This document shows positions 6,636 through 15,891 of a stretch of DNA of 64,000 bases, piece after piece. Position 1 is the stretch's first letter, and each line of letters begins with the position of its first letter. A model generated the notes under the pieces. It ran no database searches and was not told the origin of the DNA. It saw nothing but the letters and a program-made list of their open reading frames with translations. The translations under genes and the position numbers were made by a program. Source of the stretch: an uncultured Burkholderiaceae bacterium (GTDB lineage Bacteria > Pseudomonadota > Gammaproteobacteria > Burkholderiales > Burkholderiaceae_F). The stretch is from positions 509 to 64,508 of the forward strand of contig CAZDXQ010000016.1 of assembly GCA_964509545.1 (NCBI GenBank). The letters are read 5' to 3'.

Positions 6636-7376
6636 CTACAGCCGTGTCCTGACGAACAGCCGCTCCGGCACATGCTTTATCACGAGCATGATCCAGCGCC
6701 AGAACCATGGCGTGTACACCGCACCAAAGCCGCCTTCGAGCGCCCGGTCGATGTCGGCCGCAACCCTCTCCGGCGTCGCCCATAGCGGTCCCTTGGCAAA
6801 CGACGCCGTCATCGGCGTGTCAACGAAGCCCGGGAGGATCGTCACCACGCGCACGCCCTTGCGTGCGAGTCGGTGCCGCAAACCGCTGGCGAAATTGGTC
6901 ACCGCAGCTTTGGCCGCCCCGTAGACGTAATTGCTGGCGCGACCGCGATCGCCGGCCGGCGAAGAGATCACCCCGATTGCGCCGGTGCCCTGGCGTTCAA
7001 ACCGGTTGGCCAGGTCAGTGAGCAACGCCAGTACCGACCGCGCATTCGTGTCAAACGATGCCAGCGCCGCCGCCGCACTCCGCTCGCACTCGTCCTGCTC
7101 AGGCAGCACGCCATGCGCGATCAGCACATGGTCGAAGGCCCCGAAGCGTTGCCACGCCGCATCGAGACAGGCGGCATGCCGGGCAATGTCGTTGGCATCG
7201 AGGACCCACGTCTCGACCTCGGCGGCGCCGCGCACGCGCAGGTCGGCCGCCAACGCCTCGAGCGCTCCTGCGCGCCGACCGACGAGACCGATGCGCGCGG
7301 CGCGCTCCGCATAGCGGCGTGCCACTGCCGTGGCGATCATCGAAGTCGCGCCAACAATTAGCAGTCGTTCGTTCAT
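6636..7376 (-). CDS. short-chain dehydrogenase, DprE2-like (polyprenylphospho-2-keto-pentofuranose 2-reductase)
   Basis: SDR Rossmann N-terminus MNERLLIVGATSMIATAVARRY, then YGAAKAAV (YxxxK). Sits 4 nt downstream of the DprE1-like gene, as dprE1-dprE2 are arranged in mycobacteria. Confidence 0.72.
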   Translation of the reverse strand: MNERLLIVGATSMIATAVARRYAERAARIGLVGRRAGALEALAADLRVRGAAEVETWVLDANDIARHAACLDAAWQRFGAFDHVLIAHGVLPEQDECERSAAAALASFDTNARSVLALLTDLANRFERQGTGAIGVISSPAGDRGRASNYVYGAAKAAVTNFASGLRHRLARKGVRVVTILPGFVDTPMTASFAKGPLWATPERVAADIDRALEGGFGAVYTPWFWRWIMLVIKHVPERLFVRTRL

Positions 7377-7380
7377 CACC

Positions 7381-8691
7381 TCAGGAACCGAGAAGGCGGC
7401 GCGACATCGCCGATGACAGGCCCGGATCGCGATAGCGCAGGAACTCTGGCAGCCGCGGATAACCGCATTCCAGCAGTTCGCGCGGCATGCAGGCGTCCTT
7501 GGCCGGATACAGGCGCCCGCCGGCGTCGCGCACGATGACGTTCAGGCGATCGAACAGCCTCAGCGTCCGCTCACCGCCGTTGGGAAAATCCAGCGCCAAC
7601 GTGGTTCCAGGCATCGGGAAGCTCAACATGCCCGGCGCCGGTCGGTCGCCAAAGGTCTTCAGCACGGCGAGGAACGAACCCAGCCCCGATGCCGCGATCT
7701 CGCGCAACATGCTGCGCGTGGCGTCGAGCGCCACCGCCGCGGGCACGACGCTCTGAAACTGGTAGAAGCCGCGCGGCCCGTACATGCGGTTCCACTCCAG
7801 CAGGTTATCGAGCGGGAAGAAGAACGGCACAAAGTGCTGCTCGCCGCGGCCGCGCTTGAGCTTCTGCGTCGCGTAGTACATGCGATTGAAGATGCGCAGC
7901 GACAGGCCGTTGACCAGCGACACCGGCGGTGTCAGCGGAAAGGTCCGCAGTCGCCGAGGCTGGACGTGATCGCGTCGCGCCGAATGATTGCCCTGGAAGA
8001 ACACGCCCCGTCCGCGTCCCCCGCTCAGGCAGTCGATCCACGACACCGTGTACTCGTAACCGGACCTCGCCGCGACCGAGAGTTCGAAGAACTGTTCGAG
8101 CGAGTCGAACGGGATTGTCTCCGCATCGAGCCACGGCCCTTCGACCCGCCTGAGCCGCAGCCGCGCGCGCGTGATGATCCCGGTCAGGCCCAACCCGCCG
8201 ACGGTAGCCTCGAACCATTCACGGTTCTCCCGCGGCGAGCAGCTCATCATGCTGCCGTCGGTGCGAAGCAGATCGAAGTCCAGCACGTGTTCGCCGAAAC
8301 TGCCGGCCACGTGATGCGCTTTGCCGTGCACGTCGTTGGCGATCGCACCGCCGACGGTGATGAACTGCGTGCCCGGCACCACCGGCGGGAACCATCCGCG
8401 CGGCAGCGCCAAGTCGATGATTTCCTTCAGCAGTACCCCGGCCTCGCAATCGACGACCCCGGCCTCGGCATCGAAGGCGATGAATCGGTCCAGCCCCCGC
8501 GCCTTCCACAGAGTGCCGCCCGGGTTCAGGCAGACATCACCGTAACTGCGGCCGTTGCCGAACACGATCCCCGGAAGCGCCGAGGCGCGAACCACCTCGG
8601 CCACCCGATGGCGGTCGTGCAGGGCCACCACGCGATGCCCGTCGCGCGCCAGCCGTCCCCACGAGACCACCGGCTGCAGCGCGTCGTTCAC
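7381..8691 (-). CDS. FAD-linked oxidase, DprE1-like (polyprenylphosphoryl-beta-D-ribose 2'-oxidase)
   Basis: ORF 7381..8703. GTG at 8691 gives a GTGA overlap with the upstream stop. Motifs [39 protein letters not shown] and [11 protein letters not shown] match my memory of DprE1 (Rv3790). Confidence 0.82.
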   Translation of the reverse strand: [436 protein letters not shown]

Positions 8692-13841: not shown

Positions 13842-14211
13842 CGCGGACGCCTCTTCAGTGAAGCTCAAGCTTCGCCTCAACCACTAACTAGGCGAATGCG
13901 CCGCTCGGGGTGGCGCCCCGCCGCCGAGCGGAAGTGTCTGTCAAGATCATTGCCGAAAGCGATTGGGACAATAATGACGGCGGTTCCCGACAGATGGCTG
14001 CCTCGATTCGCTGGCGAGCATCTTCGAATCGACCTCTTGCCGGCCAAGATCGCGTGGATCATCGGACGTGCGACTTCGTCCACGACTCGCCAGTGAGGAA
14101 CTTAACCGATCCGATCCCGGCTCCCTCGTCGCCATCTCCCTCGGTTATCGATGGTGCCACTTCGTTCATCGGCATAGCATGAAACAACTCACCACTTTCA
14201 CTTCCTTCACT

Positions 14212-15891
14212 TCACCGCCTCGTTACCCCCGATCTCTCAAAACGGAGGCTTCCGAGAACCCACGACAGTTCCCGCTCGTCCGCGCCATCCTTGGCGCGGA
14301 CCGGAGCAAGCACCGTGATCGACCTTGCGCCTCGGGGAAACGCGACACGCTCCGAAAAATCGCCCGCGCGCTTAACCTCAAAAGCACCTGCCAGGGCACC
14401 GTCACTGAATACCTGCACGACGAACATGCCGTCAGGATAAGACGTCAGATTCGGCAACCATCCACTCACTACGACTTCGTCCACCTCAGCATTTGGGACA
14501 CGCAGCCCGAGCCGCGGTCGAATCCACGTCTGCATCTCCTCCTTGTAGTAACCACTAGCGCCCGATTCGTCGATCGAATCGTGCGTTACCACGCTTGGCG
14601 AGTTCTCTTTACAGAAGAGCACCTGGAGATTCTTGACCGCGTGCGGCGATAGACGGACTTTCATGTTGTGCACTGGATGCACAGCACCGTCAGTGCACAA
14701 CCATGATTGGGCCTCCTTCATGCTCAACTGTCGGATCGCAGACACGCGCCACTCTGTCCGGAGCGAGTTCACATAGCCAGCTGCGACCGCTAAGCCAAGA
14801 ATTCCGAGAATTACTGGCCTCTGATAGCGATTCAGCAGAAGCACAGTTCCGACTGCACCCGGCACTAGTAGAGGCACGTAACGAGGCGCCTCGGGTTGAA
14901 AGATTCCGGCCGAGACCCGCGAATACGTCACTCCAAGAATCAGGCAGGCGGTTAGCCCGATACAAAGCAATTCGAACATGGTTGCGGGCCACTCCCTGAG
15001 CGCCCTGAACGTGCAGCTAGCGGTAACTATGGCGACCGCGCCTCCTGCAAGCACTGAAAATATCGGCCATCGACCAACATCGAAAAAAGCATGGGCAATC
15101 ATTCGCAGCGCATGCTCTGTGGCCAACGGAAGCACGAGTTCGCCCGTGCCGACACCGCTGCGCGGCGCGAGCAGTTGCGAAATGCCAAATACCGCCAACC
15201 CGACGCATACGCCAAGGATTACTACCGGCGAATACTGCCGCCCCTTCGTCAGCATCATGAGCGCGCCGCCCGTCAGCACAAGGCTGAAAATGCCAGCGCC
15301 ATTGGATAACGTCGCCAGGAGAGCACATGCCATCGCCCAGGCCACGTGCTTTGGCTTTCCTTCGACAGCGAATCGGCGCGCCGCCGCAAATGCAGCCAGG
15401 CTTGCCGCGAGGAACGCAGCGAAGGCGAGCTGCATCGACCAGTACAAGTTCTCCCACTGCCGAGTGGTCAAGACGAGCAACGCAATTGCTCCGCCAGCGA
15501 ACAGTCCTGCCCAGAGGTCGCCGAAGTCGACACGGCCGAGGACCAATGCAAGTGCCACAAGAAGTAGCGGAACCTGCGCGTAGGACATCCACACCCACGG
15601 AAGATCCAGCTTCACCGTCCCTGCGATGAGCAGTTTCAGGAGAATGTAGGGATGGCCATTGTGCGCGGCCAGAATCTCACTGAAGGATGGAAACTCATTT
15701 CGCGCAAGAGCATCGAACAGGGCGTCGAAGGTCAGTTCGTCCTGAAACGGTGTACCGAAGCCGGCTCGCGAAATCAGCAAGAGCAGGATCAGAGACAGTG
15801 CCATTGAGCCCCCGAGCGCCACGATTCGTAGGGTCACGGGCGTCTTCGCAAGAAGTTCAGCGCGCGCGGACATCAACTTTTCCAGGGGCAC
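14212..15891 (-). CDS. polytopic membrane protein, GT-C-like glycosyltransferase candidate with a ~170-aa C-terminal soluble domain
   Basis: 559-aa ORF (GTG 15891; alternative ATG 15873). At least 10 hydrophobic helices. Acidic QDELTFD motif right after the first helix, where GT-C enzymes carry their D/E motif. No family recognised with certainty. Lower-GC sequence. Confidence 0.5.
   Translation of the reverse strand: MPLEKLMSARAELLAKTPVTLRIVALGGSMALSLILLLLISRAGFGTPFQDELTFDALFDALARNEFPSFSEILAAHNGHPYILLKLLIAGTVKLDLPWVWMSYAQVPLLLVALALVLGRVDFGDLWAGLFAGGAIALLVLTTRQWENLYWSMQLAFAAFLAASLAAFAAARRFAVEGKPKHVAWAMACALLATLSNGAGIFSLVLTGGALMMLTKGRQYSPVVILGVCVGLAVFGISQLLAPRSGVGTGELVLPLATEHALRMIAHAFFDVGRWPIFSVLAGGAVAIVTASCTFRALREWPATMFELLCIGLTACLILGVTYSRVSAGIFQPEAPRYVPLLVPGAVGTVLLLNRYQRPVILGILGLAVAAGYVNSLRTEWRVSAIRQLSMKEAQSWLCTDGAVHPVHNMKVRLSPHAVKNLQVLFCKENSPSVVTHDSIDESGASGYYKEEMQTWIRPRLGLRVPNAEVDEVVVSGWLPNLTSYPDGMFVVQVFSDGALAGAFEVKRAGDFSERVAFPRGARSITVLAPVRAKDGADERELSWVLGSLRFERSGVTRR

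Follow-up and report, generated by a model that had tools for sequence, protein, structure and literature searches.

A putative extracytoplasmic pentofuranose glycosylation system within an ABC-transporter-dependent O-polysaccharide locus of an uncultured Burkholderiaceae bacterium

Results

The window (the whole stretch of 64,000 nucleotides that was analysed) carries within an O-antigen cluster a chain of eight tightly packed genes on the minus strand (6636-15873). The 5' end of this chain is formed by the gene for a membrane protein of 553 aa (14212..15873). It is followed by genes encoding an extended SDR (12897..13841, 314 aa, 'NAD-dependent epimerase/dehydratase', Pfam Epimerase), a phytoene-desaturase-like flavoprotein (11534..12862, 442 aa), a small GtrA-family membrane protein (11116..11544, 142 aa), a polytopic LPG_synthase_TM or MprF-flippase-like membrane protein (10121..11119, 332 aa), a fusion of a HAD-type phosphoribose phosphatase and a UbiA-type polyprenyl-phosphate phosphoribosyltransferase (8688..10124, 478 aa, Pfam HAD and UbiA), a DprE1-like FAD-dependent oxidase (7381..8703, 440 aa) and a DprE2-like short-chain reductase (6636..7379, 247 aa). 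The gene models agree with those called separately on the metagenome contig of origin. The LPG_synthase_TM gene shares 4 nt with each of its neighbours, the flavoprotein gene runs 11 nt into the start of the GtrA gene and the UbiA fusion overlaps the DprE1-like gene by 16 nt (4 nt under the alternative start of one gene caller); through these overlaps of 4-16 nt the genes of the chain are predicted to be translationally coupled. The first-pass annotation had described the UbiA, oxidase and reductase genes as overlapping, which holds for the first two, whereas the DprE1- and DprE2-like genes lie about 1 nt apart. Its inventory was also incomplete, in that the HAD fusion (in the place of Rv3807c), the LPG_synthase_TM protein, the FAD oxidoreductase and the epimerase-like SDR had been passed over.

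The genes upstream of the chain define its surroundings. The gene that adjoins the membrane protein encodes a class I SAM methyltransferase (16050..16838, minus strand, Pfam Methyltransf_23), an orthologue of which (63%) occupies the same position in the related locus L105; further methyltransferases recur inside or next to the cassette in related loci. Then follow, all on the minus strand, a GT9-like glycosyltransferase (17139..18164, Pfam Glyco_transf_9), a fusion protein of 1131 aa (18161..21556), a Wzt ABC ATPase with a glycan-cap-binding Wzt_C domain (21549..22934, Pfam ABC_tran, and Wzt_C at 118.9 bits), the Wzm ABC-2 permease (22924..23670, Pfam ABC2_membrane) and a dTDP-L-rhamnose synthesis block rmlD-C-A-B (23742..27245, Pfam and NCBIfam), consisting of rmlD (23742-24638), rmlC (24635-25192), rmlA (25189-26082) and rmlB (26079 to about 27150). 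The fusion protein contains methyltransferase (residues 38-155), GT2 (479-693) and GT4 (940-1099) domains according to Pfam, as well as a candidate coiled coil at residues about 260-370, read by eye from the heptad-rich sequence, and is a candidate chain terminator and polymerase. LPS heptose genes (a hldE kinase-domain protein and an ADP-heptose 6-epimerase) adjoin the locus. The gene content thus supports a setting in an ABC-transporter-dependent polysaccharide locus beside LPS heptose genes. The co-orientation of the cassette with rmlB-A-C-D, wzm, wzt and the large membrane protein, which had been pointed out earlier, was borne out by the gene calls and Pfam.

The assignment of the three core enzymes was clear. 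The motifs on which it had originally been based are indeed present: NDLIDLESDRHHPRKRLRPFARG lies in the UbiA protein, with its first residue at position 245, and GNGRSYGD and the other quoted stretch of 31 protein letters fall within the oxidase ORF. The HAD/UbiA fusion scored 670.9 bits against NCBIfam PRK08238 (cut-off 351), sided with the DPPRS models of that collection (E 3e-45) over heme o synthase (6e-13), and had Rv3806c (8j8j) as best PDB match (E 1e-31, the next UbiA-type structure following at 1.7e-3). Its residues D15xD17, N245-D246-xx-D249-xxx-D253 and R364/E367 correspond to the functional residues D18, N247, D248, D251, D255, R366 and E369 of Citrobacter youngae ORF15 (PMC11127046). 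The oxidase matched the NCBIfam DprE1 model with an E-value of 5e-107 (358.9 bits under an equivalog cut-off of 500; next family 4e-8) and DprE1 in the PDB with 8e-71 over residues 12-425 (next family, cytokinin dehydrogenase, 1e-11). It keeps the counterparts of H132, K134, Q334/Q336 and K418, and has Ala in the place of Cys387. The reductase, with YGAAK at residue 153, scored 309.6 bits against PRK07102, over its cut-off, and 187.8 bits against the DprE2 model, under the cut-off of 250; its best PDB match was M. tuberculosis DprE2 (E 9e-31, next SDR 1e-15). The wide margins in the family and structure searches support the identification of the trio as homologues of Rv3806c, DprE1 and DprE2, as had been proposed, but not as certified equivalogs, because none of the three reached the NCBIfam equivalog cut-off of the corresponding DPPRS, DprE1 or DprE2 model. 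The pathway is moreover not rare, since DprE1-like genes were found in 65 plasmid records, mainly of Rhizobium. Considering these records and the class of three-component pentofuranose systems that Kelly et al. established (PNAS 2024, PMC11127046), the earlier view that the pathway occurs only sporadically outside actinobacteria is outdated.

Two membrane proteins are candidates for the transfer of the donor across the membrane. The GtrA protein, whose gene precedes the UbiA start by about 1 kb in the same operon (as annotated before), scored 55.1 bits against Pfam GtrA_DPMS_TM (cut-off 26.1). It was present in all 18 related metagenome loci with good flanks, and in 45 of the 75 metagenome loci with one flank of 600 bp or more it was encoded at most 300 bp from the flavoprotein gene. 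It may act as flippase or scaffold; a flippase role of GtrA-family proteins is contested in the literature. The second candidate donor flippase, the LPG_synthase_TM protein, scored 104.5 bits against PF03706 (cut-off 33.4) and 62.6 bits against the 'flippase-like domain' TIGR00374 (cut-off 43.2), matched the MprF model with an E-value of 2.6e-9, and was encoded in 8 of the 18 loci with good flanks.

The flavoprotein and the extended SDR appear to form a functional pair. The flavoprotein (Pfam Amino_oxidase) scored 503 bits against PRK07233, over its cut-off, and its AF2 model (pLDDT 79) has the phytoene desaturase/protoporphyrinogen oxidase fold, with rice PDS (5mog) as best Foldseek match (E 4e-25, TM 0.76), followed by PPOX. 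Among its more than 6,490 homologues the best 120 were all at least 73% identical. The extended SDR (GAAGLVG at residue 10, SSS at 116, YTNTK at 128) shows the highest conservation within the module, with 83% identity in the loci L001 and L002, and its gene directly precedes that of the flavoprotein in 33 of 62 loci. The flavoprotein accompanies UbiA, DprE1 and DprE2 in 17 of the 18 metagenome loci with good flanks and is encoded about 3 kb or less from DprE1 on all seven proteobacterial plasmids; among the metagenome loci the pair is nearly limited to cassettes that contain DprE1/E2. Burkholderia stagnalis YJ-2, Agrobacterium salinitolerans DG3-1 and Rhizobium tumorigenes are candidate carriers of the cassette.

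Because of this co-conservation the final sugar is uncertain, and the donor may be something other than plain D-Araf. It is possible, though on balance unlikely, that within the same architecture the pair acts as a second oxidase/reductase couple which alters another centre of the pentofuranose (a change at C3 would turn Araf into D-lyxofuranose) or makes the sugar ready for the recurrent methyltransferase to O-methylate. Like DprE1/E2, the pair combines a flavin oxidase with an NAD(P) SDR, and it exceeds DprE1/E2 in conservation (80-83% versus 71-79% identity). In C. youngae the SDR ORF13 by itself re-sets C3 to give Xylf, and 'elaborate' loci have several epimerases (PMC11127046). Locus L018, which has the pair and the UbiA fusion without DprE1/E2, is what an independent modifying module predicts. 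A pentose-specific role is opposed, however, by distant or atypical flavoprotein homologues in L084 and Embleya, which are encoded beside GT2 and DegT aminotransferase genes but with no UbiA gene alongside; furthermore, the closest folds, PDS and PPOX, use lipophilic non-sugar substrates, and lyxofuranose is not known among solved bacterial glycans. These same folds, together with weak resemblances of the pair to HpnE, HpnA and the membrane-facing SDR NDUFA9 and the occurrence of the flavoprotein with non-UbiA lipid-sugar systems, would fit a role on the polyprenyl carrier, e.g. the (de)saturation of an isoprene unit to create a dedicated lipid pool, in which case the sugar would stay D-Araf. 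We consider this improbable: a general role of that kind would not predict the near-restriction of the pair to DprE1/E2 cassettes, and we know of no precedent in Gram-negative bacteria.

No Pfam family exceeded its cut-off for the membrane protein at the head of the chain. Its AF2 model (pLDDT 81.8, pTM 0.74) nevertheless supports a GT-C fold, in line with the first annotation: the best five Foldseek matches in the PDB were the arabinosyltransferases EmbA/B/C (E about 1e-4), followed by ArnT, OST, PglB and Pmt, with low TM-scores (0.38). The C-terminal beta-sandwich resembles CBM36, CBM51 and lectins, and D45/E46 after TM1 and R331/Y332 are invariant. The same cassette adjoins every one of three homologues (54, 39 and 33% identity), with polysaccharide genes (wzm/wzt or large methyltransferase-GT fusions) visible at two of the three loci and wzm/wzt beside one. 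In other related loci the conserved cassette is joined to unrelated polytopic membrane proteins, as expected if the transferases are acceptor-specific.

The gene neighbourhood suggests that the acceptor is the O-polysaccharide. A different target, such as a protein (e.g. pilin, as in P. paraeruginosa), the lipid A/core or a separate exopolysaccharide, is very doubtful. Although the Araf genes of P. aeruginosa PA7 are unlinked to their target and some cassettes are plasmid-borne and have few polysaccharide genes around them, the present cassette is contiguous and co-oriented with wzm/wzt and the polymerase genes, its GT-C candidate bears a CBM-like domain, the homologous GT-Cs also adjoin the cassette in polysaccharide-type loci, and the 26 kb examined showed neither a pilin gene nor one resembling TfpW.

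Discussion

Taken as a whole, the genes probably encode every component of a system that attaches pentofuranose side chains outside the cytoplasm, as described by Kelly et al. (PMC11127046), and that is embedded in an ABC-transporter-dependent O-polysaccharide locus. The general mechanism, a lipid-linked donor and periplasmic transfer, is well supported by homology. Considering the homologies and the conserved catalytic residues, the UbiA domain would transfer ribose-5-phosphate from PRPP to polyprenyl (probably undecaprenyl) phosphate and the fused HAD domain would take off the 5-phosphate, after which the DprE1-like flavoenzyme would oxidise C2 and the DprE2-like SDR would reduce it from the opposite face to yield polyprenyl-P-D-arabinofuranose. 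The gene association suggests that the flavoprotein and the extended SDR carry out a further redox step on the lipid-linked donor, which would reach the periplasmic face by means of GtrA and/or the MprF-flippase-like protein. The chain (rhamnose, possibly mannose) would be assembled and capped on the cytoplasmic side and leave through Wzm/Wzt; the pentofuranose side chain would be added after export by the GT-C-fold enzyme, whose CBM-like tail would aid the binding of the polymer.

The closest counterpart is the system of C. youngae O1/O2, of which every step has been demonstrated experimentally (PRP-PPPRS ORF15, MATE flippase ORF14, GT-C/GT136 ORF12 and SDR epimerase ORF13; PMC11127046), whereas the present system is predicted from its genes. 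Both have an N-terminal HAD phosphatase fused to a UbiA-type PPPRS, with counterparts of all mutation-tested residues, a GT-C enzyme (here a candidate) that ends in a CBM-like domain, an O-antigen locus with wzm/wzt (Wzt_C) and a methyltransferase-bearing terminator (again a candidate here), and auxiliary epimerases that set, or here would set, the identity of the sugar. They differ in the transporter (MATE versus the GtrA and MprF-flippase-like candidates), in the EpsG-type match reported for ORF12 as against the lack of a detectable family for the GT-C here, and in the presence here of the flavoprotein/SDR pair and of DprE1/E2. The latter are also found in the loci of Araf-bearing Stenotrophomonas maltophilia O-antigens; further candidates were listed in Burkholderia, Rhizobium, Xanthomonas and E. 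coli (PMC11127046).

The decaprenyl-phospho-arabinose pathway of M. tuberculosis (Rv3806c, Rv3807c, DprE1, DprE2, Rv3789 and the Emb/Aft GT-Cs) shares with the predicted system a homologous chemistry from PRPP to lipid-P-Araf, a GtrA-family protein encoded close by and a last transfer by GT-C enzymes outside the cytoplasm. However, it uses the PAP2-type Rv3807c instead of a fused HAD phosphatase, a decaprenyl rather than a presumed undecaprenyl carrier, a DprE1 with Cys387 instead of Ala, and an arabinan polymer as target instead of a putative O-antigen side chain, and the trio described here falls under the NCBIfam equivalog cut-offs. To our knowledge the mycobacterial cluster also lacks the flavoprotein/SDR pair. 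Among Gram-negative systems, PsPA7_6245-6251 and TfpW of Pseudomonas (para)aeruginosa PA7/Pa5196 offer a comparable DPPRS/DprE1/DprE2/GtrA-like set, a lipid-linked D-Araf donor and its use by a periplasmic GT-C, but there the target is pilin, the gene for TfpW lies at another site, the phosphatase is encoded on its own, and 6250 and 6251 are dispensable and have no assigned function. In the arabinosylation of Nod factors by noeC(N)HOP of Azorhizobium/Rhizobium, NoeC, NoeH and NoeO are the UbiA, DprE1 and DprE2 homologues; the sugar goes to a lipo-chitooligosaccharide, a transfer for which NoeP has been proposed, and an O-antigen context is absent. The GtrABC glucosylation of Shigella and Salmonella O-antigens, finally, has the same three components, i.e. 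a synthase of the lipid-linked donor, a small membrane protein of the GtrA family and a locus-variable, serotype-specific polytopic transferase, but its synthase (GtrB, a GT2) takes UDP-glucose as substrate, and no epimerisation takes place on the lipid.

The first-pass proposal of a Gtr-like, three-component periplasmic decoration is thus still the best reading of the architecture, although plain D-Araf as the end product is uncertain in view of the flavoprotein/SDR pair. It is these two extra conserved redox enzymes that set the locus apart from the type of system described in 2024.

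Proposed donor biosynthesis

The three proteins that the first-pass annotation had named with their motifs, a UbiA-family protein, an FAD oxidase and an SDR reductase, are all present in the open reading frames of the locus (minus strand; 8688-10124, 7381-8703 and 6636-7379, respectively), and the profile comparison that it proposed, together with a structure comparison, returned the mycobacterial enzymes Rv3806c, DprE1 and DprE2 as best matches. The first gene encodes a 478-aa fusion of a HAD domain (Pfam, residues 13-153) with a UbiA domain. For the latter domain the NCBIfam DPPRS models yielded E-values of 3e-45 to 3e-39, versus 6e-13 for heme o synthase and 2e-5 for UbiA, and a comparison with the PDB gave Rv3806c (8j8j) at 1e-31, followed by DGGGP synthase at 1.7e-3. 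The same fusion architecture is known from ORF15, the PRP(HAD)-PPPRS protein that makes undecaprenyl-P-Ribf from PRPP in the Citrobacter youngae O1/O2 system, as worked out by Kelly, Duong, Nothof, Lowary and Whitfield (PNAS 2024, PMC11127046). The HAD domain carries, like ORF15, the DxD nucleophile motif (D15-L-D17-G-T; DLDGT at 15). In the UbiA domain, cytoplasmic loop II has N-D-x-x-D-x-x-x-D and loop IV has R..E, formed by N245, D246, D249, D253, R364 and E367, with N247, D248, D251, D255, R366 and E369 as the ORF15 counterparts. Residues of these motifs have been mutated in both ORF15 and Rv3806c, and those of ORF15 matter by mutagenesis (PMC11127046); the catalytic residues of the fusion, including D15, coincide with the ORF15 mutagenesis positions at an offset of 2-3 residues. 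The protein remains below the NCBIfam equivalog cut-off for 'decaprenyl-phosphate phosphoribosyltransferase' (155 versus 234 bits) and passes PRK08238, 'UbiA family prenyltransferase' (670.9 versus a cut-off of 351). We have filed it, on the basis of sequence, as a putative PPPRS-like homologue of the HAD-fused subfamily and not as the actinobacterial equivalog.

The 440-aa oxidase covers positions 4-446 of the 449 of the NCBIfam DprE1 model (E 5e-107; next family 4e-8), and thus both the VAO-type FAD domain and the DprE1-specific C-terminal half. Its PDB matches are the DprE1 structures of Mycobacterium tuberculosis and M. smegmatis (E 8e-71, residues 12-425), followed by cytokinin dehydrogenases at 1e-11. 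The active-site counterparts His132, Lys134, Gln334/336 and Lys418 (M. tuberculosis numbering) are kept, and the segments HGKAHH, FYQFQ and LYPAK align with the matching segments of the M. tuberculosis protein. Cys387, the non-catalytic residue that is covalently modified by benzothiazinones, is replaced by Ala (residue ~372), and because of this replacement the oxidase would be predicted to be insensitive to these compounds. It scores 358.9 bits against an equivalog cut-off of 500, and is a homologue that most likely works like DprE1.

The 247-aa reductase, whose gene starts ~1 nt past the stop of the oxidase gene, has DprE2 as its best PDB match (21gq chain C, 9e-31; next SDR 1e-15), a gap of about 15 orders of magnitude to the next family. 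It contains YGAAK and passes PRK07102, and it scores 187.8 bits against an equivalog cut-off of 250. Since none of the three proteins reaches its NCBIfam equivalog cut-off, all of which we take to be tuned to actinobacterial sequences, we refer to them as homologues, which most likely function as their mycobacterial counterparts do, and not as equivalogs. A quinone- or heme-type UbiA protein and an unrelated VAO oxidase are both ruled out, as the scores for Rv3806c and DprE1 are separated from those of the next family by tens of orders of magnitude.

Relation to described systems

In C. youngae the sugar is added in the periplasm, after polymerisation, by ORF12 (MH325883.1), a GT-C protein with a C-terminal CBM and the founder of family GT136; a MATE protein is the candidate flippase and ORF13 (an SDR; O2, MH325884.1) turns the donor into Xylf (PMC11127046). 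For Araf-containing glycans DprE1/E2 homologues were described in the same arrangement, with examples in S. maltophilia and candidates in Burkholderia multivorans, Rhizobium, E. coli, a phage and Xanthomonas citri, and with transporters that may be of the MATE or SMR type (PMC11127046). The proposal in the first-pass annotation, periplasmic decoration of an ABC-exported O-polysaccharide with D-Araf, was therefore correct in kind, but had already been published as a general model (PMC11127046): as it was stated, the system is a further instance of the kind described in 2024. The annotation's premise that the pathway is known only sporadically outside the actinobacteria is out of date, and the pathway is not rare. 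By tblastn, 101 plasmid records carry the HAD-UbiA fusion, and DprE1-like genes are present on 65, mostly from Rhizobium. A phage-encoded counterpart was sought as well, with a single weak partial match. R. leguminosarum (WSM1325, NC_012853) carries a simple cassette in the order UbiA-GtrA-DprE1-DprE2, followed by two hypothetical membrane proteins.

The version found here is a variant, with a second flavoprotein/SDR pair, a gene for an MprF-flippase-like protein and a GT-C that belongs to no Pfam family. The flippase-like gene (10121-11119, 332 aa) lies between the GtrA gene (11116-11544, 142 aa) and the UbiA fusion. GtrA, of a family of small proteins with ~4 transmembrane segments, belongs to Pfam PF04138 (55.1 bits versus a gathering score of 26.1) and falls below the cut-off of the NCBIfam subfamily gtrA_1 (25 versus 50). 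The neighbouring protein passes the cut-offs of both LPG_synthase_TM (PF03706, 104.5 versus 33.4 bits) and TIGR00374 (62.6 versus 43.2), the latter being named 'flippase-like domain' by NCBIfam and kin to the flippase half of MprF. PDB sequence searches with either protein returned no match. We regard the LPG_synthase_TM protein as a candidate flippase that is absent from the published MATE/SMR models.

The O-antigen locus

The cassette is the distal part of an unbroken chain of co-oriented minus-strand genes that runs from rmlB (~27.2 kb) down to 6636, with gene models that are reproduced by independent gene calls on the source metagenome contig, a JGI contig of 79.6 kb that two Logan assemblies also contain. 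The genes are tightly packed: the flavoprotein stop and the GtrA start overlap by 11 nt, GtrA/LPG_synthase_TM and LPG_synthase_TM/UbiA by 4 nt each, and UbiA/DprE1 by 16 nt (or 4). Upstream of the cassette lie the GT-C gene (14212-15873), a gene for a class I SAM methyltransferase (16050-16838), and, also in the chain 5' of the GT-C, one for a GT9-like protein. They are followed by a gene for a 1131-aa fusion of methyltransferase, long coiled coil (read by eye from the sequence), GT2 and GT4 (18161-21556), which has the appearance of a WbdD-like terminator joined to a polymerase. Adjoining it are wzt, with a Wzt_C cap-binding domain (21549-22934), and then, in the same orientation, wzm, rmlD, rmlC, rmlA and rmlB. 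Loci for O-polysaccharides that are exported by an ABC transporter and have a capped terminus are laid out in this way. Past the rml genes come a hldE kinase-domain gene and an ADP-heptose 6-epimerase gene, which implies that the organism makes LPS; on the other side the plus strand encodes WbsX, an NTP-transferase, pgi and manC. PPPRS, candidate flippase and GT-C are encoded together at 6636-15873, contiguous with wzm/wzt/rml, as in the three-component systems of Kelly et al., in which epimerases are optional.

The G+C content of the window, ~0.68 overall, falls to 0.59-0.64 between 12 and 26 kb. It is ~0.61 from the GT-C to wzm (14000-24000), 0.69 in the flanks and intermediate (0.65) in the donor cassette, a pattern that would fit a mosaic of O-antigen modules exchanged horizontally. 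A 568-aa minus-strand reading frame at 5077-6783, which reaches into the end of the region 6636-15891, is an artefact of the high G+C content; the real gene here is on the plus strand, overlaps this frame and encodes the WbsX-family glycosyltransferase (5110-6462). A promoter and terminator scan gave nothing informative. Elsewhere in the window, and unrelated to the O-antigen cassette, a very large CheA-like hybrid histidine kinase of 1916 aa with a C-terminal receiver domain is encoded on the plus strand (57262-63012), 3' of an MCP gene (55000-57243).

The candidate GT-C transferase

The 553-aa GT-C candidate matches no Pfam family. In a Foldseek search its structure model (pLDDT 81.8) matched the mycobacterial arabinosyltransferases EmbA/B/C first and then ArnT, OST/PglB and Pmt; the Emb matches have E-values of ~1e-4 and a probability of 1.0, but a TM score of just 0.38. 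All full-length matches are GT-C enzymes, and the few short exceptions hit the C-terminal domain, a predicted beta-sandwich that resembles CBM36, CBM51 and lectins. Directly after the helix 2-37, in the first extracytoplasmic loop, the acidic residues D45/E46 are invariant in 13 sequences; R331/Y332 are likewise invariant in the family. The features shared with ORF12 (CAZy GT136) are architectural only, namely a CBM tail and an R-Y pair that recalls R349/Y350; neither the GT-C nor ten distant relatives have an EpsG-type Pfam match, unlike ORF12 with its reported EpsG-type match in CDD.

The family is small and lies outside Pfam, with 12 matches in an index of 5.8 billion proteins. In a full profile search of 1.84 billion representatives, 43 sequences reached E<=1e-30 and 1,192 reached E<=1e-3, and the ten distant relatives matched no Pfam GT-C family. 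The same extended cassette directly adjoins each of three homologues, which are 54, 39 and 33% identical, with the genes in one order or the other, at loci with polysaccharide-type genes; wzm/wzt are visible beside one of the three. At other cassette-bearing loci unrelated polytopic membrane proteins occupy the GT-C position. The pattern is that of a conserved donor module combined with an acceptor-specific transferase, as in Gtr systems.

Taken together, a PRPP-derived lipid-linked pentofuranose would be made in the cytoplasm, flipped to the periplasmic side and added by the GT-C to the exported polysaccharide. We consider this model quite likely; every step draws on homology and gene association, in an organism that is known from a metagenome. 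Within the model, the chances that the transferred sugar is plain D-Araf appear roughly even.

The flavoprotein/SDR pair

The extended cassette contains, 5' of GtrA, genes for a 442-aa FAD protein that passes the PRK07233 cut-off (11534-12862) and for an extended SDR of 314 aa (12897-13841) that carries GxxGxxG, Ser and YxxxK. The model of the flavoprotein (pLDDT 79) is closest in fold to plant phytoene desaturase (TM 0.76), and then to protoporphyrinogen oxidase. A ring-contraction enzyme like UDP-galactopyranose mutase was considered and is not supported: the protein has no GLF match in Pfam, and no mutase is found in the top 50 structural matches.

Exact copies of the proteins occur on metagenome contigs only. 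The nearest genomes are MAGs of Burkholderiales (73-76% identity), the two closest of which share seven syntenic genes with the window. In these two the pair is most conserved, with 83% identity for the SDR and 78-80% for the flavoprotein, versus 71-72% for DprE1; the sequence constraint on the pair is stronger than that on DprE1/E2. The flavoprotein has more than 6,490 matches, and identity is 73% or higher for each of the best 120 listed. The order UbiA-DprE1-DprE2-SDR-flavoprotein-GtrA is seen on plasmids of B. stagnalis, of A. salinitolerans and of a Rhodobacteraceae strain; the order in the window is a cyclic permutation of it, with the flippase-like gene inserted. DprE1 lies within ~3 kb of the flavoprotein on all seven proteobacterial plasmids that have the latter; these make up 7 of the 65 DprE1-bearing plasmid records.

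Via the flavoprotein we fetched 80 metagenome loci, 18 of which extend 6 kb or more to either side. UbiA, DprE1 and DprE2 are present in 17 of these, the SDR in 16 (15 of them with the trio), GtrA in all 18 and LPG_synthase_TM in 8. There are exceptions. L018 (JGI Ga0679475_0000061, 7972-12929), a close relative of the cassette (69-78% identity), lies next to wzm/wzt and combines the UbiA fusion with the SDR, the flavoprotein, a methyltransferase and GtrA, but has no DprE1/E2 within 9 kb; this natural 'minus DprE1/E2' variant is useful for assigning a function to the pair. At two further loci, L084 (3828-12695) and L023 (Embleya sp. NBC_00888, 6750-10374), a 311-325-aa GT2 and a DegT-type aminotransferase replace UbiA as neighbours of the flavoprotein, which is 59% and 32% identical to that of the window, respectively; these surroundings resemble ArnB/ArnC-type pathways for lipid-linked aminosugars. 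The pair, noted in the window and at L001, L002, L013, L018-L022 and L025-L107, accompanies the UbiA/DprE1/DprE2 genes at dozens of alpha- and betaproteobacterial loci. The flavoprotein and SDR belong to the module.

Our literature search found no paper that addresses the pair and no assigned function. A second oxidase/reductase couple that changes the lipid-linked sugar is a possible but tentative reading. That the two enzymes act on the carrier lipid instead, and change the lipid, seems improbable to us.

Class I SAM methyltransferases recur in or right beside the cassette (the window, L013, L018, L021, L084, L105-L107), a hint that the sugar on the lipid, or else the end of the chain, may be O-methylated. 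They are not all orthologous: only L105 has an orthologue of the one in the window, which is for that reason no universal member of the cassette, and the other loci have different enzymes. It is conceivable, though we think it unlikely, that the extended cassette, often with a methyltransferase, goes beyond D-Araf to a lipid-linked pentofuranose that is so far undescribed in glycans of bacteria, for instance D-lyxofuranose or an O-methylated derivative, to be added to the O-antigen by a Pfam-less GT-C family dedicated to the cassette. D-lyxofuranose, in which both C2 and C3 are inverted relative to ribose, has never been found (PMC11127046).

Significance

With the core finding, an uncultured betaproteobacterium joins the carriers of a route of surface-antigen diversification that is widespread and was defined recently, which is useful but expected. 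The conserved flavoprotein/SDR pair is the more valuable point. Environmental Proteobacteria carry the variant widely, and a few cultured strains have it too; as these include Burkholderia stagnalis YJ-2 (NZ_CP156687), Agrobacterium salinitolerans DG3-1 (NZ_CP074394) and Rhizobium tumorigenes (NZ_CP117262), the role of the pair is directly testable. If the pair does re-tailor the lipid-linked sugar, it would add a new or modified pentofuranose to the catalogue of bacterial antigens and to the toolkits of glycoengineering, and would constitute a second case in which an oxidase/reductase couple epimerises a sugar on its lipid carrier.
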